From NCBI GenBank assembly GCA_934402395.1, contig CAKRTQ010000012.1:7751-71750 (forward strand): a stretch of 64,000 nt of DNA, given 5' to 3'. The position numbers were made by a program, and so were the translations under genes. The DNA comes from an uncultured Eubacteriales bacterium. GTDB taxonomy: Bacteria; Bacillota; Clostridia; Oscillospirales; CAG-272. The notes beneath the pieces are model-generated. The model had not been told where the DNA came from, made no database searches, and saw nothing but the letters and a program-made list of their open reading frames with translations. Below are positions 2,251-24,884 of this stretch, piece by piece. Numbering within the stretch: the stretch's first letter is position 1; every line of letters begins with the position of its first letter.

Positions 2251-2721
2251 TCAGGCTATATTGCCGTATATGTTACAGCCGATTGAAACATCTATATCAT
2301 ATGTATTGGTTGTTATGAAAAGAACTTTCCTCTTATATACAGCAGTACCATACGCTATATTGTCTGAATAGCTGTTTTCATGAGCGGACAATGACCAAGA
2401 CTTTTCATAAATAACAGACGAGTAAGTGGAGTTTGTGCAAACAGCAGATACCCCTTCATTTACTTTAAAGGTTCCTGTTAATGTGTATGTCCATTGCAGA
2501 TTATCTTTAGAGTCATAAAGATTGACTATTTTTTCGCCCAACTTTGTATAGGTCGTGGACTTTGTGGATTTTGTGGATTTTGTAATTGGAGACTGCCTAA
2601 TTACGGTTACCATATAGCTGCCATCTTCAAAATGTACCGTAGTGGAACTGGTTTTATAAGTTTCTACTGAAATGTGTTCAGGACTTTCGGCACATATTGT
2701 GTTAAGCGGAGCAAAAGTCAA
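2251..2721 (-). CDS. beta-rich hypothetical protein, probably a 5'-truncated fragment
   Basis: Only a TTG start is present, with an in-frame TGA immediately upstream. No SD and no signal peptide. Contains a KSTKSTKST repeat. Its start abuts head-to-head the truncated start of the Rhs gene. Confidence 0.35.
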   Translation of the reverse strand: MTFAPLNTICAESPEHISVETYKTSSTTVHFEDGSYMVTVIRQSPITKSTKSTKSTTYTKLGEKIVNLYDSKDNLQWTYTLTGTFKVNEGVSAVCTNSTYSSVIYEKSWSLSAHENSYSDNIAYGTAVYKRKVLFITTNTYDIDVSIGCNIYGNIA

Positions 2722-4884
2722 TCATATGTGTATAACACAAACAACGGAAAACTTGACATACTGACGTACGGAAACGGTCACAAATGTAAATACATTTATG
2801 ATGAACTTGACAGAATAAAAGAAATACAGTATAATACAAGTAGCACTTCGACCTCATTTACAACTGCATATACATATGAATATGATGCAAATGGGAATGT
2901 AAGCAAAATAACCGACATGCTGAGCAGTCAGGTGACGGTTTTTTGGTACGACAGTAAGGGAAAGCTACGCAATTACTACGTCAACAAACGTAGCGATGAG
3001 AATGACCAGTCCGCGCTGTATTTTTACTATGACAACGAGGGCAGACCGGTAAAGCGCGAGTATTACAGAGATTACAATGCGTCCGGAGTGACGAATGCAA
3101 TTGCGGAAACCGGTATCGTATATAATGATGACGGCTCGGTCGCGAGTATAGGCACCGAAGTGCAGGGTATGATCGTTTCGGCTGAATATTCATACGACGA
3201 TCTTTGGCGTACATCCGCAACTGTGTGGAAGATAGGCTCCTACGATGCCAATCCCCCTGCAACGATCACGCAAAGCTACACCTACTCAAACTATGAGTAT
3301 GAGTATGATGGGGATGAAGAGAGCGAGATCTGCGATACTCCGCTCATACACTCGGTAACCACATCAAAGCCCGACGGCAGCGAAACACTTTATTATACCT
3401 ACGACGAACGCGGGAACATAATGTTGATCCGCCGCGGGGTGAACGATATAGTGTGCCGTTATGCATACGATTCTCTCGGACAGCTCATCCGCGAAGACAA
3501 CAGCGTACTTGGCAAAACGTACGTATGGACATATGATAAAGCGGGCAATATTCGCAGTCGTGAGACATATGCGTATACTACCGGTAATCTCGATTCGGTC
3601 CAGAATACGGTAATATACGGTTATGATACCGGCAGCTGGGGCGATCTTCTCATATCGTTCAACGGTCAGAGCATAGCATATGACGGCATAGGCAACCCCG
3701 GGACATGGAACGGCAGCGCCCTTACATGGCAGGGCAGACGTCTCATGTCTTACGGTTCGAATACTTATACCTATAATGCAGACGGTATAAGAACGAGCAA
3801 GACCGTAAACGGGGTAGAGCATATATATCATCTCTCCGGAACGCAGATTCTCAGTGAAGAGTGGACAGAGGGCAGTGTTCAGCACATACTGATATATGTC
3901 TACGATGCCTCGGGACAGCCGATAGGGATGTCGCACTATGAAAACGGTGAGCAGCGCGGGACATATGTCTTTGTGAAGAATATTCAGGGCGATATCACCG
4001 GCATATATGACGATGAAGGCACTTGCCTCGTCACGTATACATACGATGCCTGGGGCAATGTTACCGTATCGTATTCTAACGGCGGTGCCTCAACTGCGGC
4101 AAAATATAACCCGTTCCGTTACAGAGGTTATTACTACGATAACGAGACCAGCCTCTATTACCTTAACAGCAGATATTACGATCCCAATGTAGGCAGATTC
4201 CTTAATGCGGATGGTTCTGTAAACGCCAACGGCGACCTTATCGGATTCAATATGTTCGCTTATTGCGGAAATAATCCGGTGATGTGGCGTGACCCGTCCG
4301 GTACGTATTGTGTTAGACTAGCTGACGACATGACGATGAGTCTGATCAACTTGTCGTTTGCGCTTGCTTGCATTGGAACCGGTTATTTGGCATGGACCAG
4401 TGCGACCGGAAAATTATCTCGTTCTTCGACCAGTTTCCCGATTGCTGATATTGATGTAATAGATGTAGTCAAGCCTGTTTGGCGTAGTAAAAATAGGGAA
4501 GTTGCCATAGCTGATGAGGCGGAGAAGGTCGCAACCGATGTTTCGACTGCTCAACATGGGAAATATTACGGAGCACATGCATTGGACAAAAATAGTGCCC
4601 TAATACCATTAACATCGCCAATGACGCTCGAAGAGGCTATTGCTTGGATAGATACGGTGTGTATTATGAGAGGTTATGGCGACGTAAGCATGGATAGTAC
4701 TCATATATGGGGTGTATATACTGTTAATCAGTCTGATGCGCGGATACTTGCGAGTGCTGTCGGGGCTGCTCCGTATGTCGATGGACCGCATAGTGCTGCT
4801 GGCTATATGCATTACCACATTAAAGGAAAAAAACTCAGGGGATTCAAGAGTTTTCATGTATGGTTTTCAATGAGGGGGATATAA
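2674..4884 (+). CDS. Rhs/YD-repeat polymorphic toxin, 5'-truncated, with unique C-terminal toxin domain (CT1)
   Basis: Many YD repeats (YxYDxxGN/R). The Rhs core-end motif is RYYDPNVGRFLNADG...FAYCGNNPVMWRDPSGT, followed by ~190 unique residues. YD-repeat similarity starts abruptly near 2715, and no N-terminal trafficking region is present. Confidence 0.85.
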   Translation: MFRTFGTYCVKRSKSQSYVYNTNNGKLDILTYGNGHKCKYIYDELDRIKEIQYNTSSTSTSFTTAYTYEYDANGNVSKITDMLSSQVTVFWYDSKGKLRNYYVNKRSDENDQSALYFYYDNEGRPVKREYYRDYNASGVTNAIAETGIVYNDDGSVASIGTEVQGMIVSAEYSYDDLWRTSATVWKIGSYDANPPATITQSYTYSNYEYEYDGDEESEICDTPLIHSVTTSKPDGSETLYYTYDERGNIMLIRRGVNDIVCRYAYDSLGQLIREDNSVLGKTYVWTYDKAGNIRSRETYAYTTGNLDSVQNTVIYGYDTGSWGDLLISFNGQSIAYDGIGNPGTWNGSALTWQGRRLMSYGSNTYTYNADGIRTSKTVNGVEHIYHLSGTQILSEEWTEGSVQHILIYVYDASGQPIGMSHYENGEQRGTYVFVKNIQGDITGIYDDEGTCLVTYTYDAWGNVTVSYSNGGASTAAKYNPFRYRGYYYDNETSLYYLNSRYYDPNVGRFLNADGSVNANGDLIGFNMFAYCGNNPVMWRDPSGTYCVRLADDMTMSLINLSFALACIGTGYLAWTSATGKLSRSSTSFPIADIDVIDVVKPVWRSKNREVAIADEAEKVATDVSTAQHGKYYGAHALDKNSALIPLTSPMTLEEAIAWIDTVCIMRGYGDVSMDSTHIWGVYTVNQSDARILASAVGAAPYVDGPHSAAGYMHYHIKGKKLRGFKSFHVWFSMRGI
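3595..4284 (+). repeat. Rhs core repeat, copy 1 (approximate bounds)
   Basis: Direct DNA repeat with 5605-6302. Long identical runs include ggcgatcttctcatatcgttcaacggtcagagcatagcatatgacggcataggcaaccccgggacatggaacgg. Confidence 0.85.
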
Positions 4885-5423
4885 TGAAAGAATATTATTT
4901 TATAACTTACGACTATGTAGATGGTGCACATATTTATTACGATATAAAAGGTGACGATCTGCAAGAGCTTATAAACGTTTGCGTCAAATATTGTACTGTG
5001 CTCAGCTTAACATACTGGCCGGGGCAGGAAAGCGTACGTGAAAAATTTCGCAAGTATGAGCTTAGCGAAGAGGAATCGCGCCCGTTTGCCGCAGTTGCAA
5101 CATGGCGGGCGTACAACGATGACTTTACAACAGTCAATATTTTTTACAGGATATGCCCGGAGCTTATTGATGAATTTCTGAAAATGAGCGATGGTCGCTT
5201 AACCGGGTGGTGCAGGTTTGAAGATGAGAACTATCCTGAGGATCCGTCATTTTTCCGTGAGGATGCAAGTGTATTTTTCAATCCGGTGGTTCATGAAGGA
5301 CTTTACTTTCTTCATCCAAGAGACGATGAGGACGTAAGCAACATAGTTTGTCATCCGGGGTGGTGTGTCAACACACGTGGCAATAAGTTACTCACGATAG
5401 ATTTCGATAAATTGAAACCATGA
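4884..5423 (+). CDS. putative cognate immunity protein for CT1
   Basis: The ATG overlaps the Rhs stop (TAATG at 4882-4886), with a GAGGGGG SD inside the toxin 3' end. It is a 179-aa acidic cytosolic protein. The call is positional. Confidence 0.6.
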   Translation: MKEYYFITYDYVDGAHIYYDIKGDDLQELINVCVKYCTVLSLTYWPGQESVREKFRKYELSEEESRPFAAVATWRAYNDDFTTVNIFYRICPELIDEFLKMSDGRLTGWCRFEDENYPEDPSFFREDASVFFNPVVHEGLYFLHPRDDEDVSNIVCHPGWCVNTRGNKLLTIDFDKLKP

Positions 5424-5554
5424 TCAGCAATATTGTTTGTGCTTGAACAAGCAAAACCGTAAATGGAGTGAAGCAAATGTATCACCTCATAGGTACACGT
5501 ATACCTGAAAAGGGCGAACCGTTGGTGGTTATAAGACTCTAACTTTCATTCCCC

Positions 5555-5581
5555 CCCCGCCGTGCCGACGGCACGGCGGGG
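5555..5581. repeat. GC-rich perfect hairpin at the 5' boundary of orphan Rhs cassette 2
   Basis: CCCCGCCGTGCC-GAC-GGCACGGCGGGG: 12-bp stem, 3-nt loop. Confidence 0.8.
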
Positions 5582-6860
5582 ATGGACAAGGCATCACAAC
5601 ATCGGTTCGGTACAGAATATGGTAATATACGGTTACGATACCGGTAACTGGGGCGATCTTCTCATATCGTTCAACGGTCAGAGCATAGCATATGACGGCA
5701 TAGGCAACCCCGGGACATGGAACGGAAGCGCCCTTACATGGCAGGGCAGACGGCTCATGTCGTACGGCTCTAATACTTATACCTACAATGCCGACGGTAT
5801 AAGAACGAGCAAGACCGTAAACGGAGTAGAGCATATATATCACCTTTCGGGAACGCAGATACTTGACGAGGAATGGACCGAAGGAAACATCCACCATCTC
5901 ATGGTGTATGTTTACGATGCATCCGGTCAGCCGATAGGTATAAGTCATTATACATACAACGGAACGCTCGTATCTGAAAATGACTATCTGCTCGTTTCCA
6001 ACATCCAGGGCGACATAATCGGTATCTACGACTCCACCAGGACCCGCGTTGTAACGTATGTCTATGATGCATGGGGGCGTATACTCTCTACCACCGGGAC
6101 CGGCGCTAATACCATCGGCGTATATAACCCGTTCAGATATCGTGGTTACTACTACGATACCGAAACCAGCCTCTACTACCTCAACAGCAGATACTACGAT
6201 CCCAACGTAGGCAGATTCCTTAATGCAGACGACTACATAAACGCCAACGGCGACCTTATCGGATTCAATATGTTCGCTTATTGCGGCAATAATCCGGTGA
6301 TGCTTACTGATTATTATGGATACAGCGCTTATAAGTGCGGTCACAATAACAATCCGGATAAATGCAGATATTGCAAGAAAGAGCGCGAAATTGCTCAAAT
6401 GGCGGGAGTCCGGTATTCGCAGAGTAGAATTCAAGAAGATGCCCAAGTTGATGATGATACACCTATAAACTATAATGGTGCATATTCACAAGCTCAAACT
6501 ATAACATCATTGACAACTAACGCTTTTGCATTATTGCTTACGGTAACATCTCAAGGTGTTGATACTATAGCATCTATGTATGTGACCGGGTTTGGATATC
6601 TTGTAACAGCACCAATAAATATAGTGCAAACATGGAACAATCCGAATTTAGGTACCAAAGGAAAGGTGCTGCTAACTACATATGATGTGATGGTTGCTGC
6701 GAGCGGTGTTGGCATGGTATTCGGTATGGCGAACTGGTGGAATGTTACAGGTTGGGCGGCGTTGGGGATTTCTGTTGTTTATACAGTAGTCACGTATGCT
6801 GTCGAGTATAAATTACAAGAGTATTTAGAGAGAAGGTACTACAATGAATACGCACGATAA
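5562..6860 (+). pseudogene. orphan Rhs C-terminal cassette 2 (core fragment plus distinct hydrophobic toxin tip CT2), no credible start
   Basis: From ~5605 it is near-identical at DNA level to 3595-4284 of the main gene. The only start is a GTG inside the hairpin. After NNPVM the C-terminus diverges and contains several hydrophobic segments. Confidence 0.7.
5605..6302 (+). repeat. Rhs core repeat, copy 2 (approximate bounds)
   Basis: See copy 1. The central part is more diverged. Confidence 0.85.
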
Positions 6861-7173
6861 GACTGTGGGCTTTTTTGACAAAGTATCACACATTATTGCA
6901 TATTCATACATAGCACATTTTGTATGTGGACTTTTGGCATACGATGGACGAAATTGGTGGACTGAATATAGTGTTACTTGGTATCGTGGCGCGATCAACT
7001 TCTTTCTATCATCGTTTGCGATAGCAATCAATAGCATTTTGGTGTGCATTTTCATGAAAAAAGCAGCACCGCCTGTGAAATCCCCCAAAATCATAGTCAA
7101 CTGGGTCGTTGCAGTTGTACCAATTGTTCTTGCATGGCTGTCGATAATACTTGATTTGGTGCTTATACAGTAG
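6844..7173 (+). CDS. putative membrane immunity protein for CT2
   Basis: Overlaps the cassette 3' end, with AGAAGG SD. It is 109 aa with ~3 predicted TM segments. The call is positional. Confidence 0.5.
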   Translation: MNTHDKTVGFFDKVSHIIAYSYIAHFVCGLLAYDGRNWWTEYSVTWYRGAINFFLSSFAIAINSILVCIFMKKAAPPVKSPKIIVNWVVAVVPIVLAWLSIILDLVLIQ

Positions 7174-7362
7174 TTATACATCAGATAAGTAGCAGTATTC
7201 ATTATGACTTATATGATATTGAATGGTATGGTTGCGAAAATGGCGGGGTCTGTAGAAATAACATATGTTTACCCCAATGCAATCAAAGGTCGATGCAACA
7301 TTCCGTTTTTATGATATGCGATTAAAAAGCAATACCTTCTCTTTCCCTAAAAGAGGTTTGCT

Positions 7363-7395
7363 CCCCGTAGCTGTGCCAATGGCACGGCTACGGGG
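7363..7395. repeat. GC-rich hairpin at the 5' boundary of orphan Rhs cassette 3
   Basis: CCCCGTAGCTGTGCC-AAT-GGCACGGCTACGGGG: 15-bp stem including one G.U. It shares the CCCCG..GTGCC/GGCAC..CGGGGAT frame with the hairpin at 5555-5581. Confidence 0.8.
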
Positions 7396-7484
7396 ATTGG
7401 GGATGGGCAGGGTGTCGCATACGTCAGCGCAGGATCGGTAGAATATGACCGTATCAGCAGTGTAACGAATGCGCTTGTACGTAA

Positions 7485-8372
7485 GGACACATCTCTAATA
7501 CTTATACCTACAATGCCGACGGTATAAGAACGAGCAAGACTGTCTATGGTGTCAAACACATATATCATCTCTCCGGAACGCAGATACTCAGTGAAGAGTG
7601 GACGGAGGACAGAGTTCAGCACATACTGATATTTGTCTATGACGATTCGGGACAGCCGATAGGAATGTCGCACTTTGAAGATGAAGTCAAAAACGGTGAC
7701 TACCTGTTTGCGAAGAACGTCCAGGGTGATATTACCGCTGTTTATGATGCAAATGGTACATGCCTTGTAACGTATACCTACGATGCGTTGGGCAACACCA
7801 GAGTGAGGTACTCAAACGGCGGTGCCTCAACTGCGGCAAGATATAACCCGTTCAGATATCGCGGTTACTATTACGATACCGAAACGAGCCTTTACTACCT
7901 CAACAGCAGGTATTATGATCCTGCAGTCGGCAGATTCCTTAATGCGGATGGTTCTGTAAACGCCAACGGCGACCTTATCGGATTCAATATGTTCGCGTAT
8001 TGCGGAAACAACCCTGTAAACAGAGTTGACCGCACGGGACAATTTTGGAGTGAAATTTGGGAGTTTGCCAAAATAGCCGTTGCCGAAATTGGAAAAGCCA
8101 TGGAAGTTATGTCTCCCGCTTACGCTGGGTGTGGTGGAGTAGCTGTAGCTGATGGGCCTCTTCCTTTCGGAGATATTATTGCAGCAGCAGTCATAGTATT
8201 GTTAACCGCAGGTGCTATAGGATATGGAATTTATCAAGCAGTACAGGCTCCAGCTATTTCTGTTCCAAAAGTTGAAGAAAAAGATGAAGCAATACCTGCA
8301 CCTCCGCCTACTCCAACAGTAATTTATAGATATAGCGGAACGTATGATTTTAATTGCCGCCTCGACATCTGA
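7485..8372 (+). pseudogene. orphan Rhs C-terminal cassette 3 (start-less; degenerate and frameshifted upstream remnant; tip CT3 probably truncated)
   Basis: The frame opens after TAA at 7482-7484 and the first ATG is at 7665. NTYTYNADGIRTSKTV...RYYDPAVGRFLNADG...CGNNPVNRVDRTGQ is homologous to the main gene. A YD-like remnant at 7414-7480 is in another frame. Confidence 0.65.
7497..8017 (+). repeat. Rhs core repeat, copy 3 (shorter, approximate bounds)
   Basis: Homology begins at aatacttatacctacaatgccgacggtataagaacgagcaag. Confidence 0.8.
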
Positions 8373-8930: not shown

Positions 8931-9018
8931 GGGACCTGCCGAAGGCGGGACACCGACTTCGATTTTACGGGTTCAATTCCCGGCGATGCCTTGCTATCAG
9001 AATGAAAGGAGCGGCACA

Positions 9019-10227
9019 ATGATTGAAATCAAAGGAAAGGTAAATACAGCTATCTGTTATGCAGCGGTTGTAGAGGACGAAGCGATCGAACAGATCCGCA
9101 GAATGTGTGACTATGATTTCACAGCAGGATCTCAAATACGGATCATGCCCGATGTACATGCCGGAAAAGGCTGTACGATCGGCACCACTATGACGATCAC
9201 TGATAAAGCGGTTCCCAATATCGTTGGTGTCGATATCGGTTGTGGTATGTATACTGTTGAGCTGGGTAAGGTGGATGTTGATTTTGAAAAAGTCGATGCT
9301 GCCGCTCATTATATTCCCAGCGGAAGAGATGTTTGGGAAGGGCGCATGGAGCGCTTTGACCTGACCGGGCTTCGCTGCTATAGAAACTTGAAACAGGCAA
9401 AGCGCTTGGAGAGGAGCCTGGGGACACTGGGCGGAGGAAACCATTTTATCGAGATTGATACTGCTTCGGATGGCACAAAGTATTTGGTGATCCATTCCGG
9501 CAGTCGTAACCTGGGCAAGCAGGTGGCGGAGTTCTATCAGTCTTTAGCTATCGATTTGAATGCCGGTAAGGCAGATTATTTCGAGCGTCGGGATGAGCTG
9601 ATCCGTACATATAAGGAGCAGGGCCGCAGGGCTGAGATCCAGACCGCATTGAAGGCTATGGAGAAGGAATGGGCGGCAAAAGAGCCGACGATCCCCGCAG
9701 ACCTTTGCTATCTGTACGGAACCTACTTGGATGACTACCTCCACGATGTAGAGATCTGCCAGCAATTTGCAAGGCGCAGCCGTGAAAGAATGGCGGAGAT
9801 CCTTTTGGAAAAGACCGGAATGACTGCGATCTCTTCCTTCCACACCATCCACAATTATATTGATACGAAGGAAATGATCCTCCGCAAAGGCTCTATTGCG
9901 GCTCATTACGGAGAACTTGTCCTGATTCCCATCAATATGCGGGACGGCAGTGTGTTGGCTCGCGGCAAAGGGAATCCGGAATGGAATTATTCAGCCCCGC
10001 ATGGAGCCGGCCGTCTTATGTCTCGTGCAAAGGCACGCGAAACGTTGGATTTAGAGGTGTATAAGAAGACAATGGAGGGTATCTACACAACGTCGGTCAA
10101 TGAAGCCACCATCGATGAAGCACCCATGGCTTACAAGTCGCTTGAAGACATTATCGATGTCATCAGAGAGTCTGTCGATGTGATCGAGTTACTAAAACCT
10201 ATTTACAATTTTAAGGCATCTGAGTGA
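9019..10227 (+). CDS. rtcB: RNA 3'-phosphate/5'-OH ligase RtcB
   Basis: AAAGGAG SD. Family motifs present: IMPDVHAGKGCTIG, GGGNHFIEID, HSGSRNLG, IPINMRDGS, APHGAGR. Length 402 aa. Confidence 0.9.
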   Translation: MIEIKGKVNTAICYAAVVEDEAIEQIRRMCDYDFTAGSQIRIMPDVHAGKGCTIGTTMTITDKAVPNIVGVDIGCGMYTVELGKVDVDFEKVDAAAHYIPSGRDVWEGRMERFDLTGLRCYRNLKQAKRLERSLGTLGGGNHFIEIDTASDGTKYLVIHSGSRNLGKQVAEFYQSLAIDLNAGKADYFERRDELIRTYKEQGRRAEIQTALKAMEKEWAAKEPTIPADLCYLYGTYLDDYLHDVEICQQFARRSRERMAEILLEKTGMTAISSFHTIHNYIDTKEMILRKGSIAAHYGELVLIPINMRDGSVLARGKGNPEWNYSAPHGAGRLMSRAKARETLDLEVYKKTMEGIYTTSVNEATIDEAPMAYKSLEDIIDVIRESVDVIELLKPIYNFKASE

Positions 10228-10264: not shown

Positions 10265-10459
10265 ATGTTGAATCGTTTGAAAAATGAGGCGAATATCGCT
10301 TGCACAGAAAATGGCGCAGTTACCAACGCAAGAACACTTAGCATATCTCTGAGTTCGGGCGTTACGATGATCCGGTACAGTCACGCAAGGGAAACCGAGT
10401 GTGGCGGTGTAGGAATAAACGTTTGCATCCTTGGATCCGGTGAGGCTTTATTTATATAA
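10265..10459 (+). pseudogene. short ORF whose first ~25 aa look like the N-terminus of a TROVE/DUF2828-type protein; possible gene remnant
   Basis: Strong GGAGGAG SD lies 5 nt before the ATG. MLNRLKNEANIACTENGAVTNARTLS carries the TENGA-type N-terminal motif, after which similarity is lost in all frames. 64 aa. Confidence 0.3.
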
Positions 10460-10773
10460 ATCCGATGAACGGAAATAATGAAGTCGCACAATATACAGGT
10501 GTGGATCGGCTGATCGGGTTTACATCAATGAAGTATGGACCGGCGGTCGGAGGGAAGTCCCTCTGCGGTCCCGGGCTGAGAAGCTCGGAGGCGGAATGCC
10601 GGTACTGTCAGACGCCCCGATAATTAAATTCACACTGCTTTACACGGTATAGTGTTTGCCGGATGATCCAAAGTCCCGCAATACTATAAATAGAACACGA
10701 TTTGTACGGCTTATTCGCTAATGGGTACTTTAGATTTAAAGAGAATCGGTCTTATGAGTCGTGTTCACTGTAG

Positions 10774-10839
10774 AACGCAGCTAGTAAAGCTTATTTCGCC
10801 GTATGGCTTTTGATCAGATTCAGTTTTACGATCCGCGTT
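10774..10839 (+). ncRNA. candidate structured RNA module 1 (CAGCUAG-helix-CUUAUU type)
   Basis: Outer helix AACGC (10774-78)/GCGTT (10835-39). Conserved AGCTA internal loop. Inner helix GTAAAG (10784-89)/TTTTAC (10824-29). Confidence 0.4.
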
Positions 10840-10845
10840 CGGTAG

Positions 10846-10905
10846 CAGCTAGTGGCGCTTACTGCTTTTAAAGCGTTCTATCAGTTAGAAAAGTGCCGCG
10901 ATTTC
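10846..10905 (+). ncRNA. candidate structured RNA module 2
   Basis: CAGCTAG (10846-52). Inner helix GTGGCG (10852-57)/TGCCGC (10894-99) covaries with modules 1 and 3. The outer helix is not obvious. Confidence 0.35.
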
Positions 10906-10913
10906 GCAAAAAA

Positions 10914-11040
10914 GCAAACAGCTAGCCGGGCTTACTTCTTCAGTAGGATCCGATCGCAGAGGTTCGATTCCTCTCGCTCCAACGGAGTGTAGCTCAGTGG
11001 CAGAGCGTCGGAATGAAATCAGTCCGGCAATTCAGTTTGC
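10914..11040 (+). ncRNA. candidate Y-RNA-like (YrlA-like) RNA: long-range stem enclosing a circularly permuted tRNA-like domain
   Basis: Outer helix GCAAAC/GTTTGC (10914-19/11035-40). Inner helix GCCGGG/TCCGGC (10925-30/11023-28). Cloverleaf core at 10949-11012 has T arm AGAGG-TTCGATT-CCTCT, a loop-closed acceptor CGCTCC-AAC-GGAGTG, TA, D arm GCTC-AGTGGCA-GAGC, and anticodon-stem equivalent TCCGA/TCGGA. Confidence 0.6.
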
Positions 11041-11066
11041 GCATTGTCTTATGGGGAGGAGAAAAA

Positions 11067-13106
11067 ATGTTCGATCAGTATTTCCGGAAATTTTTGTTTT
11101 CCAAGGGGACTTTAGTGAGCAGTGCAACGAGTCCGGATGCATTTGCGGCTCGTTTTGCCCTTGCCAATATGTTCAATATCAGCATTACGCGCGGTCAGCA
11201 GTATGCACATGAGGATATGATCTCTTTTGTTGCTGATATGCTCGGAGAATGCGTTCCGCAGCCTTTTTACCGTAATTTCCCCAAATCCGTAAGAGAACTT
11301 GCCCCCAATCAACTGTTGTTTGATCAGTTGTGCCATTATAGCATTACATACGGACTCGGTAACTTTGCGGAAGCCGGCTACTCTCTCTTTGAGGAAGAGT
11401 TTGAGAGACTTGCTTTTAAGGAAAACGTTGAGATCAAGAAGTTCATAATTCTCACGGAATCGGAGGCGCATGAACGGCTTGCCGAATATGTTGAGGATAT
11501 GCTGAAGGGGACGCGCCCTTTGAGCGATGTGCAGTATGAGCTTGTAAAGACTTATATCGATAAGTGCAGCTACGAGATCAAGAACTGTGCATGCAAGGAT
11601 ACTGCCATACGGCTTTTGCTCGATACCGAAAATGCCAAGTATGCAAGGTTCCTTGCCCTTTCGGATGTTATAAAGCTTGTTGATACCATGAACTACGAGG
11701 GTTATAACAACACGAATATCAAGAAACTGAACCTTCGCAATCAGGACCGCAGATTCATTGCCAGAGTGATCAACGCTATCTTTGATGGCGGTCGCATAAA
11801 TGTCAGAGAGTGTTTTGAAAAGAAAGCGGTCTGGTGCGGGTTGCTTCACCATATTCACTATCACCCCAGGATTCCCGAAGCCGAAAGATTTGTTGCGCTT
11901 ATGCGGGGCAATGAAAACTGGTCGGTGTACTCCGGGTTTGAGCGTGCAATGACGGCTCGTGATATCAGAGCGGCAGTTACCTGCCTTCTTGAAGGCAAGG
12001 GATCCGGTGCGCTTTTCAGACATCTCAACTATATTCTCAGCAGGTGCACGGATGAGGAGGATGTGGCATTTGTTATGGAATCGCTCCATACCAAGAATGC
12101 TGTCGTGCTCATTCAGCTGATCATGCAATATGCGAATTATGTAGCCGATGCCGACCGCAAATTTAAGTTTACACGTTATAATAAGCTCAAGATACATACG
12201 GAAACTGACGAGGAGCAGTCCAAGAGGAAGTCTGCGCTTCCTTCCGAACGGGTGGATGAGCTTTCGGCGGTTATGTTTGCGAATCTCAGGAAGCTTCTCG
12301 CCGGCAGGCTCGGCAAAGTATATGTTGCTTCCGATATGTATAATATTGCGCTTCCTATTCAGGAAAACACCTCTAACGGCGGATATGGCGTTCTTCCCAA
12401 GGGTTCCAGACTCCACATCGAAGAAGGTAAAAAGATCCGCGCATTTACCTATTGGGAAAAGGTAAATGATATTGACCTGAGTGCCATCGGAATTACCGAA
12501 GACGGAAGGCAGGTAGAGTTTTCCTGGAGGAGCATGTTCAAATTGCAGTCCAATGAGATCGCTTTTTCCGGCGATGAAACCGCCGGTTATGGCGGTGGAT
12601 CCGAGTATTTTGACGTTGATGTAGCTCTTTTTAAGAAAAACCACCCCGAAATCAAGTACATGGTTTTCTGCAACAATGTTTTTTCGCGTGCTTACTTTTC
12701 AAAATGCCTGTGCAAAGCCGGTTATATGCTTCGTGATGTTCAGGATTCCGGAGAGGTGTTTGAGCCCAAAACGGTAAAGTCTTCCTTTGTAATCAATTGC
12801 GACAGTACGTTCGCATATCTGTTCGGGATCGATCTTGAAAAGAATGATTTCGTTTGGCTGAATATGTCATTTGGCAACAACGCCACCGTGGCAGGCAGCA
12901 CTTCCATGAAGTTTCTTATTGATTACTTCAAAATCACTTCTGTTATTAACATGGGTATGCTGTTTGAAATGCTTGCGACCGAGATCGTGGAGTCTCCCGC
13001 GAACGCTGACGTAGTGGTGTCCGATGAAGAGCTTGACGGGTGTGAGAATGCCGAGGTGATCAGATCCTGCGATTTTGAGAAGGTAATGGCATTGCTCAGC
13101 CGATGA
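11067..13106 (+). CDS. 679-aa protein: divergent TROVE/Ro60-like helical region fused to a TerD-fold C-terminal domain (tentative)
   Basis: GGGGAGGAG SD. TROVE-like strings: FEKKAVWCGLLHHIHYHP, and GSGALFRHLNYILSR (compare the Ro ALLRNL segment). The C-terminus LPKGSRLHIEEG..WEKVNDIDLSAIGITEDGRQVEFSW...FSGDETAGYGGGSEYFDVDV...IKYMVFCNNVFS matches the TerD pattern (DLDxSA...SGDNxTGEGxGDDE...). The coding call is secure; the function is inferred. Confidence 0.85.
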   Translation: MFDQYFRKFLFSKGTLVSSATSPDAFAARFALANMFNISITRGQQYAHEDMISFVADMLGECVPQPFYRNFPKSVRELAPNQLLFDQLCHYSITYGLGNFAEAGYSLFEEEFERLAFKENVEIKKFIILTESEAHERLAEYVEDMLKGTRPLSDVQYELVKTYIDKCSYEIKNCACKDTAIRLLLDTENAKYARFLALSDVIKLVDTMNYEGYNNTNIKKLNLRNQDRRFIARVINAIFDGGRINVRECFEKKAVWCGLLHHIHYHPRIPEAERFVALMRGNENWSVYSGFERAMTARDIRAAVTCLLEGKGSGALFRHLNYILSRCTDEEDVAFVMESLHTKNAVVLIQLIMQYANYVADADRKFKFTRYNKLKIHTETDEEQSKRKSALPSERVDELSAVMFANLRKLLAGRLGKVYVASDMYNIALPIQENTSNGGYGVLPKGSRLHIEEGKKIRAFTYWEKVNDIDLSAIGITEDGRQVEFSWRSMFKLQSNEIAFSGDETAGYGGGSEYFDVDVALFKKNHPEIKYMVFCNNVFSRAYFSKCLCKAGYMLRDVQDSGEVFEPKTVKSSFVINCDSTFAYLFGIDLEKNDFVWLNMSFGNNATVAGSTSMKFLIDYFKITSVINMGMLFEMLATEIVESPANADVVVSDEELDGCENAEVIRSCDFEKVMALLSR

Positions 13107-13471: not shown

Positions 13472-13834
13472 ATGAAAGATTTAAAATTATACAGCTCAGA
13501 CTTTTATTCATACACAAAAATGCTTTTGAGCGGGAACACATTCCGTATCATGATATCCAAGCGTCTGCTGATGCGTCCGCTGATCCCCGCGTGGGTATTC
13601 CTCTTTTTCATTATGATGATCCCCGGCAAGGTGTTTTTCTGGATAGCCGGATTTCCGTGTTTAGGGCTGTATGCCGTTTTTTTGCTCGGTAACTACCCGT
13701 ATTGGGAAGCTTGCAGCGTAAAGAAGCTGCCTTTTGTTTTGTGGAATGCGATCTGGGTCCTGTTTTTGAAGCTGATGACGATACCGGTGCTGAATTTGTT
13801 GGAGGTGATCATAAAGTGGACTTTTTATATATGA
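13472..13834 (+). CDS. small hydrophobic membrane protein (hypothetical)
   Basis: 120 aa with 3 hydrophobic segments. The 3' end overlaps the start of the next gene. SD is weak. Confidence 0.4.
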   Translation: MKDLKLYSSDFYSYTKMLLSGNTFRIMISKRLLMRPLIPAWVFLFFIMMIPGKVFFWIAGFPCLGLYAVFLLGNYPYWEACSVKKLPFVLWNAIWVLFLKLMTIPVLNLLEVIIKWTFYI

Positions 13835-15315
13835 ATTCACGTGAGCCTGCCGTTGAGCTGGACGTTCAAAAAGAGATCGTCTCCGGGGATGCTTTTTTCG
13901 GTAAGGCAAAGGAGTATGTCACTGGCGACCGTGAGACTTTGCTTTACCGGCAGGAATTTTTCCGCGATGTGCTTCAAATAAGTGAATTGCCGGAATTTCT
14001 GACGGCACTTCATGCGAAGCTCAACGAAATTTCACCCTTGATGCGGGGAGGGCAGGGCGCGGCGGGACGCGAGGAGAAGCTGCGCGATCTGCTTTATCCG
14101 GTCGTTTATATCGAGCTTGTGGAGCTAATTTGCAGATATCTGGAGCCGATCGCCGACAGATTGACCGCGCGGTCCTTGCTGGCGCTTTATCACATGGCGG
14201 ACAACGAAAAGCGGTCCGCGGAGTACGGCAGGATCGGCGAATATTATATGAAAAACAGCGCCCGGTTGCGTTCCGTACACAGCGTTACCGTGGGCATAAA
14301 TCTGACACCCATGTTTGAGCCTAAAGAGGCGGGGATCGTTGCGCTCAATTCGGAAGAATTCAGCTCGGGCGACTTTTGGGATCGGGTGATACGGATGGAT
14401 CTCGCCAAGGACGATTTTCATTGTATTGCGCCTCTGACGGTCATTGACAAAAAGCTCGGATATCAGGACAGTCAGCGCATGAATCATGCGCTGCTGAAGG
14501 GACTGGATGCCGTTGTCGGTGATGGTCTGCGGCATTGCAGCAAGAGCATAGAAAAATATCTGAAGGATGCATTGAAAAAATTCTATGAGTGGTCCGGGTC
14601 TCTCGGCTTTGTGACAGAAGCGGTCAAACGCATCACGGAGCTGAAGGAGAAGAGAATACCGCTTGCCTTTCCGACCGTCAGCGACCGCTTCTTGTTTGAT
14701 GTGGATTCCCTGTATGACGATTCATTGTGCCGTAAAAAGGACAAAAAAGACATCGTGCCGAATACTGTGCGTCTGGAACCGGATGTATGCTGTTATATTT
14801 TGACGGGACCGAACAGCGGCGGAAAATCGGTATTTCTGAACTCGCTTGCAGCCGCTCAGTATTATTTTCAACTGGGGATGCCGATCCCCGCGAAGGCGGC
14901 GTCGCTCCCGATATGCGATGCCGTTTTCAAAATCTCGGTCGAGGAGCAGGCAAATGCGGATCAGGTCGGCAGATTCGAGAAGGAGTGCATAACTCTTTCC
15001 GGCGTGCTGAAAAAATTCACTCCCCGCAGTCTGGCACTGATAGACGAAGCATTCACCTCCACCTCGGCAGAGGAAGCTGTGCCGATCGCCGCGAATTTTA
15101 TACGTGAGATATGCCGCATTGGGGGAAAATGCCTGTTTGTGACACATTATCATGAATTGGACGGATCGCAGCCGTCGGTGCGGCAATGCGGAGGGGCGGT
15201 AGACTATCTGCACACGGAAAGCGGCGGAGAACGCAGGACGTACACAGTTCTGCCCGGCAGCTCCGATCCGCACAGCGATGCGCATAACATTGCAAAAAAA
15301 TACGGTTTGCTGTGA
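13816..15315 (+). CDS. MutS-family ATPase domain protein (MutS domain V; no Smr or mismatch-binding domain seen)
   Basis: GGAGGTG SD lies 8 nt before the GTG at 13816. Walker A is LTGPNSGGKS, Walker B is LALIDEAFTSTS, and THYHEL is present. Confidence 0.8.
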   Translation: MDFLYMNSREPAVELDVQKEIVSGDAFFGKAKEYVTGDRETLLYRQEFFRDVLQISELPEFLTALHAKLNEISPLMRGGQGAAGREEKLRDLLYPVVYIELVELICRYLEPIADRLTARSLLALYHMADNEKRSAEYGRIGEYYMKNSARLRSVHSVTVGINLTPMFEPKEAGIVALNSEEFSSGDFWDRVIRMDLAKDDFHCIAPLTVIDKKLGYQDSQRMNHALLKGLDAVVGDGLRHCSKSIEKYLKDALKKFYEWSGSLGFVTEAVKRITELKEKRIPLAFPTVSDRFLFDVDSLYDDSLCRKKDKKDIVPNTVRLEPDVCCYILTGPNSGGKSVFLNSLAAAQYYFQLGMPIPAKAASLPICDAVFKISVEEQANADQVGRFEKECITLSGVLKKFTPRSLALIDEAFTSTSAEEAVPIAANFIREICRIGGKCLFVTHYHELDGSQPSVRQCGGAVDYLHTESGGERRTYTVLPGSSDPHSDAHNIAKKYGLL

Positions 15316-15368: not shown

Positions 15369-15421
15369 TTGACAAGTGACCGTTCGGTAACTATAATATG
15401 GGTTACCGAACGGTCACTTGT
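15369..15421 (+). promoter_or_regulatory. consensus sigma-A promoter embedded in a 20-bp perfect inverted repeat (TetR operator pair)
   Basis: TTGACA (15369-74), 17-nt spacer, TATAAT (15392-97). ACAAGTGACCGTTCGGTAAC (15372-91) is the exact reverse complement of 15402-21. Each arm contains ACCG-NN-CGGT. Confidence 0.8.
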
Positions 15422-15436
15422 TTTGCGGAGGAGATA

Positions 15437-16057
15437 ATGAGCGGAGAAACCAAAAACAAAATTGCGGCGGTCGCCCTGCGGTTGTTTTCGCAAAACGGAT
15501 ACCCCGGCACGTCAATGAGCGATATTGCGGTACAGCTCGGGATAACAAAGCCGGCTTTATACAAGCACTACACAAGCAAGCATGAGATTCTCGAAGGTAT
15601 TGTAAAGCGCATGAGCGACATGGACTGCGAGCGCGCCGGGGAATACGGAATGCCCGGAGACGTGACGGATGAAGCGGCAGACGCCTACATGAATACGCCG
15701 ACGGAAAAAATACGCGCGTACAGTATTGCGCAGTTCCGTCATTGGACGGAAGATGAATTTTCCGCTCGGTTTCGCAGAATGCTCACGGTAGAGCAGTACC
15801 GTGATGCGGAGATGGCGCGGCTGTATCAGAAATATCTTGCCGCCGGTCCCGCAGAATATATGGCGGCGATCTTCCGCCAAATGACCGAAAACGATGACGA
15901 AGCAACGCAGCTTGCGCTTGATTTTTACGGTCCGATGTTTCTATTGTACAGCGTTTACGACGGAGCGGAGGATAAAAAAGCGGTCATAGGAATGCTCGGC
16001 AGTCACATTGACCGTTTTATTTCACGTATGAATGATATGAAGGAAACAACGAAATGA
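15437..16057 (+). CDS. TetR/AcrR family transcriptional regulator
   Basis: GGAGGAG SD. The N-terminal HTH is AAVALRLFSQNGYPGTSMSDIAVQLGITKPALYKHY. Confidence 0.9.
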   Translation: MSGETKNKIAAVALRLFSQNGYPGTSMSDIAVQLGITKPALYKHYTSKHEILEGIVKRMSDMDCERAGEYGMPGDVTDEAADAYMNTPTEKIRAYSIAQFRHWTEDEFSARFRRMLTVEQYRDAEMARLYQKYLAAGPAEYMAAIFRQMTENDDEATQLALDFYGPMFLLYSVYDGAEDKKAVIGMLGSHIDRFISRMNDMKETTK

Positions 16058-23391: not shown

Positions 23392-24201
23392 ATGCTTGGT
23401 GCAATAATAGGAGATATAGTAGGTTCGGTATACGAATTGGGGGCTGACAAAACAAAACGCTTCCCGCTGTTTTCACCCGGCTGTTCACCCACAGATGACA
23501 GTCTGATGACAATGGCGGTTGGCGTTACCTGTGTGTCGGCTGATATCCGCATGGAGAGCGAATTCAAAAGAATGCTCTCCGAGATGATGCGCGAGATCGG
23601 AAGACAATATCCCGATGCAGGTTACGGCAGCCGCTTTTTTGATTGGCTCACCGACGACGATGCCGGCGCATACGGAAGCTACGGCAACGGCGCCGCCATG
23701 CGCGTTTCGCCTGTGGCATATGCTGCCGGAAGCCTTGAAGAGGCAGAGAGGCTTGCGCGGTGGAGTGCCGAGATCACGCACGATCATCCGGAAGGGATAA
23801 AGGGCGCCATGGCGACCGCAGCGGCGATATTTCTTGCGCTTGATGGACACGACAAGGATGAGATACGTGCGTATATCGAAAACAGGTATTATGATCTGGA
23901 CTTTACACTTGATGAAATACGCCCGACGTACGAATTCGATGTGAGCTGCGAGGGCAGCGTGCCGCAGGCAATAGAGTGCTTTCTTGAGGCGGACAGCTTT
24001 GAGGATGCCCTGCGCAACGCGGTATCGCTTGGCGGCGACTGCGACACGATGGCGGCGATCGCGGGTGCGATAGCAGAGGCATTCTACGGCATTCCCGACG
24101 ATATCGCAGAGCGCGCGTTCGGATATATGGATGATACCGAAAAAGAATTATATTATGAATACGCAGACTGGCTTTACGGTCTGCACGGGGAGAAGAAATG
24201 A
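23392..24201 (+). CDS. ADP-ribosylglycohydrolase family protein
   Basis: The N-terminal MLGAIIGDIVGSVYE and C-terminal GGDCDTMAAIAGAIAEAFYG metal-site motifs are typical of the ARH/DraG family. Confidence 0.8.
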   Translation: MLGAIIGDIVGSVYELGADKTKRFPLFSPGCSPTDDSLMTMAVGVTCVSADIRMESEFKRMLSEMMREIGRQYPDAGYGSRFFDWLTDDDAGAYGSYGNGAAMRVSPVAYAAGSLEEAERLARWSAEITHDHPEGIKGAMATAAAIFLALDGHDKDEIRAYIENRYYDLDFTLDEIRPTYEFDVSCEGSVPQAIECFLEADSFEDALRNAVSLGGDCDTMAAIAGAIAEAFYGIPDDIAERAFGYMDDTEKELYYEYADWLYGLHGEKK

Positions 24202-24884
24202 TACATATTACCGGTGACACACACGGAGACAGAGGACGGTTCGATAAGGGCGTGATGCACGGTGAACCGCAGTGGGGAACGGATGATATTCTGATGATAT
24301 GCGGCGATTTCGGATACATTTTTTCCGGCAGCGACTATGAGCGCACATTTCTTGACCGGTTGGCGGAAAAACCGTACACAGTATGCTTTTGCGACGGAAA
24401 TCACGAAAATTTCCCTGCGTTAAATGCTTTTCCCGAAGAGTGGTGGAACGGCGGCAGAGTACACAGGATACGCCGCAACATCCTGCATCTTGAACGCGGA
24501 CAGGTGTTCGGCATAGAAGACAAAAGCTTTTTCGTGATGGGAGGCGCGTACAGTCCCGACAGGGCGATGCGCCGCGAGGGCATCTCGTGGTGGCGCGAAG
24601 AGCTGCCGGACGCGCAGGCATACAGCGAGGCATGGCGTAATCTCGACGCAGTGGGAAACTCGGTGGATTACATTGTGACACACACTGCGCCCGCCGCTGT
24701 TGTGCGTGCTTTTGCGTGTGTATCGCCGGATCTGGATGCGCCGGGGGCGGAGCTTGGCGGCTTTCTGGATGATGTCATGCGCCGTGTCCGCTTCAGACGC
24801 TGGTATTTCGGGCACTGGCATACAGACAGGGAGGTGCGCGGCAGGTTCCGTGCACTTTGGTATGATGTTGAAGATATAGAATGA
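24198..24884 (+). CDS. metallophosphoesterase (calcineurin-like)
   Basis: ITGDTHGD, GDFG, DGNHEN, and GHWH motifs. ATGA overlap with the upstream gene. Confidence 0.8.
   Translation: MIHITGDTHGDRGRFDKGVMHGEPQWGTDDILMICGDFGYIFSGSDYERTFLDRLAEKPYTVCFCDGNHENFPALNAFPEEWWNGGRVHRIRRNILHLERGQVFGIEDKSFFVMGGAYSPDRAMRREGISWWREELPDAQAYSEAWRNLDAVGNSVDYIVTHTAPAAVVRAFACVSPDLDAPGAELGGFLDDVMRRVRFRRWYFGHWHTDREVRGRFRALWYDVEDIE

Follow-up and report, generated by a model that had tools for sequence, protein, structure and literature searches.

Three tandem RNA modules upstream of an uncharacterised gene

This analysis concerns three tandem RNA modules at positions 10774-11040 of a 64,000-nucleotide (nt) stretch of contig CAKRTQ010000012.1, together with the gene for an uncharacterised protein that directly follows them on the same strand. 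Hereafter, "the window" denotes this whole stretch. The modules are ordered plain hairpin, plain hairpin, tRNA-like, and are separated by 4-6 nt, as in a poly-cistronic precursor. The coordinates of the modules, their helices and the neighbouring genes are collected in Table 1.

A sequence-only reading of this DNA had placed CAGCTAG at 10778, 10846 and 10919, each copy being followed by a 6-nt strand and then by CTTA(T/C)T, and had matched each 6-nt strand with a complementary strand downstream. When positions 10300-11500 were re-read, all of these coordinates proved correct, and the succession of elements was seen in all three copies. The pairs GTAAAG/TTTTAC (partner at 10824-29), GTGGCG/TGCCGC (10894-99) and GCCGGG/TCCGGC (11023-28) were present as described, and so were the outer helices AACGC/GCGTT of module 1 and GCAAAC/GTTTGC of module 3, and the 3' loops GAUCC, GAUUUC and AAUUCA. 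The outer helix had been thought to be limited to modules 1 and 3; this has to be corrected, as module 2 has a short one (G-C, C-G, an A.A mismatch, U-A). The composite pattern CAGCTAGN5CTTAYT occurred three times in the window, compared with 0.00 times in 100 dinucleotide-preserving shuffles. The bare heptamer CAGCTAG was not enriched in the window (4 found, 4.2 expected).

Table 1. Features of the module locus in the window (P1, outer helix; P2, inner helix; R2, covariance model built from modules of other genomes; bp, base pairs; aa, amino acids)
Feature	Position	Strand	Details
rtcB (RNA 3'-phosphate ligase, 413 aa)	8986..10227	+	Pfam RtcB, E 1e-53; upstream of the modules
Module 1, plain-hairpin type, 66 nt	10774..10839	+	R2 46.8 bits, E 2.4e-8; P1 10774-10778/10835-10839; 5' loop AGCUA 10779-10783; 3' loop GAUCC 10830-10834; P2 10784-10791/10822-10829; UAUUUC 10792-10797
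Module 2, plain-hairpin type, 67 nt	10843..10909	+	R2 31.4 bits, E 7.4e-5; minimum free energy fold; weak P1 10843-10846/10906-10909 with A.A mismatch; AGCUA 10847-10851; 3' loop GAUUUC 10900-10905; P2 10852-10859/10892-10899; UACUGC 10860-10865
Module 3, tRNA-like type, 127 nt	10914..11040	+	R2 40.4 bits, E 7e-7; P1 10914-10919/11035-11040; AGCUA 10920-10924; 3' loop AAUUCA 11029-11034; P2 10925-10932/11021-11028; UACUUC 10933-10938
Circularly permuted tRNA-like domain within module 3	10951..11012	+	Rfam YrlA RF02553 match; anticodon-stem-like helix 10951-10954/11007-11010; T arm 10958-10974; closed acceptor-like hairpin 10975-10989; D arm 10992-11006
Ribosome-binding site GGGGAGGAG	11053..11061	+	13 nt past module 3; read from the sequence
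Partner gene, 679 aa, uncharacterised family	11067..13106	+	Directly after module 3

Minimum free energy folds of the single sequences reproduced P1 and the 8-bp P2 for modules 1 and 2, and P1, the T arm, the acceptor hairpin and the D arm for module 3. Since the folding z-scores of the single sequences were modest (-0.9 to -2.3), the structural case rests on comparative data. The sequence-only reading had suggested a search of the genome with a covariance model. We built such a model, R2, from 63 short modules of other genomes (alignment A6), with no window sequence among them, and ran it on both strands of the 64-kb window with filters off. It picked out exactly the three modules, with matches at 10771-10842 (46.8 bits, E 2.4e-8), 10912-11042 (40.4 bits, E 7e-7) and 10843-10909 (31.4 bits, E 7.4e-5), and the next-best match in the whole window reached only 12.3 bits (E 1.5). 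The T-class model R1 gives module 3 a score of 94 bits, but module 3 was part of the R1 seed. Because a consensus promoter scan of the window returned sites no more numerous than in shuffles, the start of transcription was not located. No terminator-like site was found between module 3 and the partner gene.

The modules share a frame that covaries across a large family

For the comparative analysis, 80 loci encoding homologues of the partner protein were taken from Lachnospiraceae, Oscillospiraceae, Christensenellaceae and other Clostridia, cultured strains included. Fetched loci carry labels such as L001; L223-L229 are the nearest relatives of the window, and L230, L231 and L232 are the phages Weasels2, LpeD and WXIN, respectively. 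The modules follow a common frame, P1 (5-8 bp) / AGCUA / 8-bp P2 / UAYUUC / variable apex / P2' / RAU(AUC) / P1', in which an internal loop of about 5 x 5-6 nt sets AGCUA opposite RAU.. between the two helices.

The anchor AGCTA-N6-NTTAYY was found in 138 copies in the 80 loci and the window, nearly all of them at most ~400 nt upstream of the gene and on its strand. The P2 partner of each anchor was picked by complementarity alone, and the P2 strands permuted among anchors served as a control. A perfect 6-bp partner existed for 127 of the 138 anchors, compared with a mean of 55 and a maximum of 68 in the permuted sets. The motif RAT, which played no part in the selection, followed 120 partners, compared with a control mean of 18 and a maximum of 28. 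In 77 trimmed frames (alignment A3) the covariation score was 0.874, compared with 0.297 when shuffled; none of 500 shuffles reached the real value, and sliding the partner columns by 1-3 positions gave 0.13-0.18. The inner five P1 pairs, which were not used in choosing the A3 sequences, were 78-100% paired, with 4-6 pair types each. In the 63 full short modules of A6, 93% of cells were paired and the covariation score was 0.952. The covariation of the inner helix positions, which had been proposed from the three copies within the locus, is thus true covariation across the family, and the conserved asymmetric internal loop between two helices is borne out by the covariation of P1 and P2 on either side of it.

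The family also revised two details of the proposed structure. In A6, the Y of YUUAYUU pairs with the R that precedes the 3' strand, a pair that had played no part in the selection: it was C-G in 39 modules and U-A in 24, without a single mismatch. The length of P2 is therefore 8 bp and not 6 bp, with the C and U of CUUAYU pairing with the A-G before the 3' strand. The closing G.U pair, which had been described as kept, is kept in the clade of the window only, and is elsewhere A-U, G-U or G-C. The identity of the transcribed strand follows from the frequent G.U pairs in A6.

The nearest relatives (74-80% protein identity) have 3-5 modules at the same place, and each helix of every module of the window was found to carry compensatory changes at orthologous positions. 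In module 1, P2 changes from U-A to C-G and P1 from C-G to U-A; the 2-bp P1 of module 2 changes from C-G to U-A (L223, L224, L226); and in module 3, P2 changes from G-C to A-U and P1 from A-U to G-C. The pairings are thus preserved in homologues. Judged from sequence and covariation, the repeats of the window belong to a large family of small structured RNAs that has apparently not been described before. We found no description of the RNA or of the protein in Rfam 15 or in the searchable literature, and a mention in relevant reviews is possible.

RNA and protein form the constant unit of the cassette

Between one and five modules per locus lie beside homologues of the 679-aa open reading frame (ORF). 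Over the 80 protein-anchored loci (669 kb, both strands), R2 found 105 modules in 69 loci, all of them (105/105) on the strand of the gene; two further loci gave R2 matches with filters off, and four of the 80 had no upstream sequence. The distance from the end of the last module to the start codon is 12-170 nt in ~90% of loci. When all flanking ORFs of the 80 loci were clustered, the RNA and this one protein proved to be the only constant unit.

The linkage was also seen from the RNA side. A metagenome scan by RNA pattern alone returned 25 loci, of which R2 confirmed 18. Four of these 18 stop at a contig edge, and in 13 of the 14 that could be assessed a homologous gene lies directly downstream on the same strand. 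As a negative control, 80 viral contigs carrying the 5' half-motif only were searched, and R2 confirmed none at E<=0.01; the sole match below E 0.1 was weak (23.2 bits, E 0.057). The 117 viral-contig matches to the half-motif CAGCTAGN6TTACTTC were consequently put down to chance, R2 having confirmed 0 of the 80 loci fetched.

Three types of apex and a permuted tRNA-like domain

Three apex types are mounted on the common frame: a tRNA-like apex of ~80-95 nt, a T-arm-only hairpin of ~35-43 nt and a plain hairpin of 12-30 nt. In many Lachnospiraceae loci they run in the order tRNA-like, T-arm-only, plain. The tRNA-like apex has an anticodon-like stem, a T arm with GGUUCGAAUCC, a closed acceptor and a D arm with UAGCUCAGNGGUAGAGC. 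RNAalifold applied to 29 tRNA-like modules returned P1, P2, the T arm, a 7-bp loop-closed acceptor hairpin and the D arm, and 23 of the 29 pairs of this alignment carry compensatory changes.

In the window, cmscan aligned the domain of module 3 (Table 1) with model positions 23-87 of the 114 positions of the Rfam family YrlA, at 35 bits (E 9.5e-6); this score is below the Rfam gathering score of 69, as are the matches in six relatives (33.7-47 bits). The sequence-only reading had confined the tRNA-like insert to module 3 and had drawn a parallel with the YrlA/YrlB pairs, and this agrees with a YrlA match in that module and its absence from modules 1 and 2. At the gathering threshold, no Rfam family matched the modules in the window and 13 relatives. 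Module 3 was rejected as a tRNA gene: it scored 17.1 bits with the Rfam tRNA model, compared with a threshold of 29, its arms are in permuted order and its acceptor is closed by a loop. ARAGORN found neither a tRNA nor a transfer-messenger RNA (tmRNA) at the modules of the window. Matches of the Rfam tRNA model and of R1 that bridged neighbouring permuted modules or tRNA genes were false and were discarded.

Modules as separate transcription units

In L040, a promoter (TTGACT-17-TATAAT) precedes a 70-nt module whose P1 is followed by U7; this unit lies downstream of the gene, which has its own promoter and a leader free of modules. L056 has the same arrangement, judged by its matching R2 position. 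L049 has a tRNA-like module after the gene, framed by a TTGACA-17-TACAAT promoter and a strong hairpin terminator. Since L040 and L049 present separate units, at least some modules are, by their sequence, autonomous small RNA (sRNA) genes, which argues against a purely cis role.

Distant homologues in large phages

Homologues of the partner protein at 20-26% identity occur in large phages of Rhodococcus, Lactobacillus and Mycobacterium. In Rhodococcus phage Weasels2, the 26%-identical homologue gp266 follows six tRNA genes, lies 3 kb before RtcB, and is itself immediately followed by four tandem modules (L230, ~6880-7236). These have the frame P1 / [AC]U[UC]AA / 8-bp P2 / UACUUC / apex / P2' / GCUC[AG] / P1', and the third carries a full tRNA-like apex. 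Lactobacillus phage LpeD has two modules upstream of its homologue (L231 4461-4620), with CUUACUUC and the loops GUUAU.. / AGCMUU, and seven tRNA genes 4 kb upstream. In Mycobacterium phage WXIN, five tandem repeats of 76-90 nt lie upstream of the homologue (L232 1728-2120) with the unit pattern CAGG-CUC-helix-GCYUUCAU...UUUCC-CUG. The first unit, which was the only one folded, has the same two-helix, internal-loop shape, and the WXIN units are probably a fourth sequence variant of the module. At the level of sequence, the architecture and its adjacency to the protein family thus persist over very distant lineages, and the loop sequences change with the protein, as would be expected of a protein-recognition site.

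The partner protein and the test of a link to Ro

If the partner gene is called as the longest possible ORF, it begins at an ATG within module 3 (11013) and encodes 697 aa. We placed the start at ATG 11067 because a strong ribosome-binding site precedes it and the homologues agree. The protein was predicted to comprise a helical N-terminal part (~1-430), a beta-sandwich (~445-600) and a small C-terminal domain, and its AlphaFold model had a predicted local distance difference test score (pLDDT) of 86.9 and a predicted template-modelling score (pTM) of 0.83. No Pfam match was obtained even at E<=10, no PADLOC match, and none in a PDB sequence search with the single sequence or with a profile. 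The only family match was a partial, sub-threshold one to NCBIfam NF041916 (92 bits, cutoff 600); the protein also matches PHROG 33734 (function unknown). Foldseek searches against the PDB, with the full model and with the separately predicted N-terminal 430 residues, returned nothing at E<=1e-3, and the top matches were generic alpha-solenoids with template-modelling (TM) scores <0.25. Homologues number at least 1080 in Clostridia, and 2276 clusters at 50% identity were found in a large representative library. Two database records name homologues 'TerD family protein', a label that is barely supported: Pfam TerD PF02342 was matched by one of 22 members only, at E 0.042, and no TerD structure was among the Foldseek matches.

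The sequence-only reading had also proposed that the internal loop between the two helices is the kind of element that binds Ro in Y RNAs. The hallmarks of YrlA are GNCGAAN0-1G, the putative contact with Rsr, a YUAY element, and a TROVE gene within 4 kb (PMC4201824; bioRxiv 10.1101/312249). In the modules, GNCGAAN0-1G is absent, and its position reads ..GC-AGCUAG.. in 138 of 138 anchors; the YUAY element is present, as UUAY. Pfam searches of the window protein, 22 homologues and 10 distant members detected neither a TROVE (PF05731) nor a vWA domain, and no TROVE protein was found among the 26 window ORFs of at least 330 aa. Ro60 was absent from the Foldseek top 50, though the PDB set includes 9nen, 1yvp and 2nvo. 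When the profile of the partner family was compared by hhalign with a Ro60 profile made of vertebrate sequences only, the probability was 0.3% (the bait sequence was used just for retrieval and was verified against PDB 9nen). With the Rsr motif absent, an adjacent protein that is not TROVE and no match to the Ro60 fold, the proposal of a Ro-binding loop is not supported. Membership in the Ro-Y RNA system fails, because the scores lie below the Rfam threshold, the Rsr-binding motif is missing and the neighbour is not a TROVE gene. The partner protein is not Ro.

Genomic neighbourhood

When the flanking ORFs of the 80 loci were clustered, RtcB was the only recurrent neighbour. In the clade of the window its place varies: rtcB lies upstream in the window, the order is RtcB-Metallophos-RNA-gene in L223 and RNA-gene-Metallophos-RtcB in L224 and L225, and RtcB lies downstream in L228 and L001. 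L227 has two Metallophos genes and an ASCH-domain gene by the cassette. The 546-nt spacer between rtcB and module 1 in the window has no similarity to any related locus and no RNA match. Clusters of ordinary tRNA genes lie near the cassette in L038, L039 and L057, and in the phages Weasels2 (L230 2126-4477) and LpeD (L231 182-1015). A role in RNA damage, repair or surveillance would fit this neighbourhood, in which RtcB, metallophosphoesterases and tRNA genes are met repeatedly, both on mobile DNA and in phages.

Several further features were observed around the cassettes. The window ORF at 24198-24875 is 51% identical to the L223 metallophosphoesterase, but is 11 kb from the cassette. Directly downstream of the partner gene lies a 537-aa protein (13702-15315) in which only a MutS domain V ATPase is recognisable, followed by a TetR regulator (15398-16057); the MutS domain V protein is not conserved beside the cassette, save for a weak match in L212. 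Just upstream of rtcB, at 2674-8372, ORFs of 736, 432 and 235 aa have RHS repeats and an RHS-associated core, and resemble an RHS toxin locus that is either fragmented or polymorphic. Positions 26678-29062 of the window and 731-2305 of L229 encode a type IV secretion coupling protein, and two integrases adjoin the cassette in L228 (7404-10009); conjugative or integrative elements seem to carry the cassette. In L007 (3522-3640) and L010 (3522-3650), the region from rtcB to the first module holds short hairpins with GCGAAG(C) loops, e.g. cctgtGCGAAGcacagg and tcatgaGCGAAGctcatg. Known and unrelated RNAs were met in two flanks, a truncated T-box leader in L030 (1-163, - strand, 56.7 bits) and a c-di-GMP-I riboswitch in L019 (6530-6625, 62.2 bits).

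Interpretation and rival explanations

We consider it probable, at roughly 60%, that the modules of the window are the RNA partners of the protein encoded downstream, and that the two form a Ro-independent, Y-RNA-like ribonucleoprotein (RNP) that probably serves in RNA repair or conflict. The protein would recognise the frame of P1, loop, P2 and UAYUUC. If Ro60 and its Y RNAs are taken as a guide, the apex, and chiefly the tRNA mimic, might engage tRNA-handling factors or serve as a decoy or gate. In some relatives the sequence indicates that modules would be made as free sRNAs, each with its own promoter and terminator; in the window they would form a poly-module leader that is co-transcribed with the gene and presumably cut into units. 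The particle would most likely act in RNA damage, repair or surveillance during conflicts.

Several observations weigh against this reading. RtcB is adjacent in just 5 of the 80 broadly sampled loci, and the protein has no recognisable RNA-binding or catalytic domain; that it binds the modules we infer from linkage alone. L050, L051, L059, L063 and L064, five of ~74 assessable loci, carry the gene and have no module within 4 kb. It may be that these five encode the RNA at another site, or that their RNA has diverged too far for the models to recognise it. L205 has a confirmed module (622-693, - strand, 49.5 bits) but is followed by unrelated small ORFs and not by the gene; this short metagenome contig may hold an orphan copy of a module. 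Finally, most loci have their modules in the 5' leader, right before the ribosome-binding site, an arrangement that fits cis-regulation too.

The modules could, on this last ground, be operators in the 5' untranslated region by which the protein or a tRNA-related signal controls its own mRNA, with no function as free RNA. The short distance of the last module from the start codon, on the same strand in ~90% of loci (12-170 nt), would suit such a leader, as would the lack of a terminator between module 3 and the gene in the window and the U-rich tracts after P1 in L004 and L005, which could be attenuators. We nevertheless hold it to be unlikely, as the modules of L040, L056 and L049 are separate promoter-terminator units downstream of the gene, the four Weasels2 modules come after the gene, known protein-binding leaders do not look like arrays of 3-5 modules with tRNA-like apices, and no Rfam cis-regulatory family matches the modules. 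Autoregulation could exist alongside a function in trans. Somewhat less likely still is an RNA antitoxin or decoy of type III kind, in which a harmful, perhaps tRNA-directed, effector is neutralised or gated by tandem RNAs that include a tRNA mimic. Here the modules would lie where expected, directly upstream of the gene in one transcription unit, within a self-contained two-part cassette that is found in unrelated genomic contexts and in phages, near integrases, type IV secretion coupling proteins, RHS toxin fragments and RNA-repair genes. Such an antitoxin is at odds with modules that are not near-identical, as their helices differ and their lengths are 66, 67 and 127 nt; with the many loci in which one module is enough; and with a protein of 680 aa that is far larger than a ToxN-like toxin and shows neither a PADLOC match nor a nuclease or toxin domain. 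The terminator between RNA and gene is also missing in the window.

That these are genuine Y RNAs whose Ro60/Rsr is encoded at another site in the genome, their adjacency to the 679-aa gene being incidental or secondary, we regard as very improbable. The YrlA-like tRNA domain, an overall topology equal to the Rfam YrlA consensus and an RtcB nearby as in Salmonella would all be explained; missing, however, are GNCGAAN0-1G, a YrlA match at the gathering score (33.7-47 bits, compared with 69) and any TROVE among the 26 large ORFs of the window. Moreover, known Y RNAs lie within 4 kb of rsr (PMC4201824), and the modules track a non-TROVE gene in four distant lineages. Chance repeats, debris of tRNA pseudogenes or ends of mobile elements with no RNA function, to which the tRNA gene arrays near some loci might have pointed, are already refuted by the covariation and linkage statistics and keep a negligible probability: the shuffle and slide controls, the strand bias of 105/105, the compensatory changes at orthologous positions, and the promoters and terminators that frame single modules all speak against them.

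We return, then, to the proposed Y-RNA-like particle. Its extension to a second, Ro-independent class of Y-RNA-like RNPs is more tentative, at a little under an even chance. In that class, the family of ~680 residues, with members in Clostridia and in phages of Actinobacteria and Lactobacillales, would be a functional analogue of Ro60 that binds the helix-loop-helix frame, and swappable apices would couple it to RtcB-type repair or gate a tRNA-directed activity in conflicts of phages and mobile elements. Until now, association with Ro60 has been what defines Y RNAs and their tRNA-mimic relatives of the YrlA type; in the present case their design is found with an unrelated protein, one that is common in rumen and gut Clostridia and occurs also in large phages. 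If this is true, the 'Y RNA' architecture extends beyond the Ro system as a solution of wider use. A large orphan family would also receive a first clue to its function, that of an RNA-binding protein linked with RtcB, phosphoesterases and tRNA genes, and RNA databases would gain a new family with three apex types. The proposal is directly testable, since cultured carriers exist (Eubacterium ruminantium FB3002 and the Lachnospiraceae bacteria C6A11, AC2031 and AC2029).

Comparison with known systems

The tRNA-like modules resemble tmRNA and viral tRNA-like structures in their core of T arm and D arm with tRNA-like conserved nucleotides, and differ from them in having no free CCA end and an acceptor stem closed by a loop. 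With the type III toxin-antitoxin systems (ToxIN, CptIN, TenpIN), the cassette shares tandem structured RNAs directly upstream of a protein gene, and a compact make-up of RNA and protein on mobile DNA and in phages. Type III systems have near-identical repeats of 34-45 nt that are cut by a small endoribonuclease toxin, with a terminator between RNA and gene. In the present family, by contrast, module sequences and apices differ, the 680-aa protein shows no nuclease signature, and many loci have just one unit.

The closest likeness is to YrlA and YrlB. As in YrlA, the 5' and 3' ends form a terminal stem that holds an internal loop; the succession of outer stem, 5-nt 5' loop, second stem, CUA and tRNA core is that of the Rfam YrlA consensus; and a YUAY element is followed by a permuted mimic with an anticodon-like stem, a T arm, a loop-closed acceptor and a D arm. 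Shorter companion RNAs lacking the tRNA domain recall YrlB, and tandem RNAs beside one large protein gene on the same strand recall the YrlA/YrlB loci. The Salmonella operon rsr-yrlBA-rtcBA brings the Y RNAs YrlA and YrlB together with Rsr (Chen et al. 2014, PMC4201824), and the cassette has in common with this operon and with Y RNAs a nearby RtcB, upstream in the window, and its occurrence in phages. Unlike Ro60, the partner of YrlA, the protein found here is not TROVE/vWA, whether judged by its sequence, its profile or its predicted fold; AGCUA and RAU (other loops in phages) stand in place of GNCGAAN0-1G, with UAYUUC conserved; and a third, T-arm-only apex, arrays of up to 5 modules and RNAs that are usually the leader of the protein gene set the family apart from YrlA/YrlB. 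The analogy with YrlA and YrlB is thus apt for the look of the system and, probably, for how it works: the system would work like a Y RNP, yet it is not a Ro-Y RNA system.

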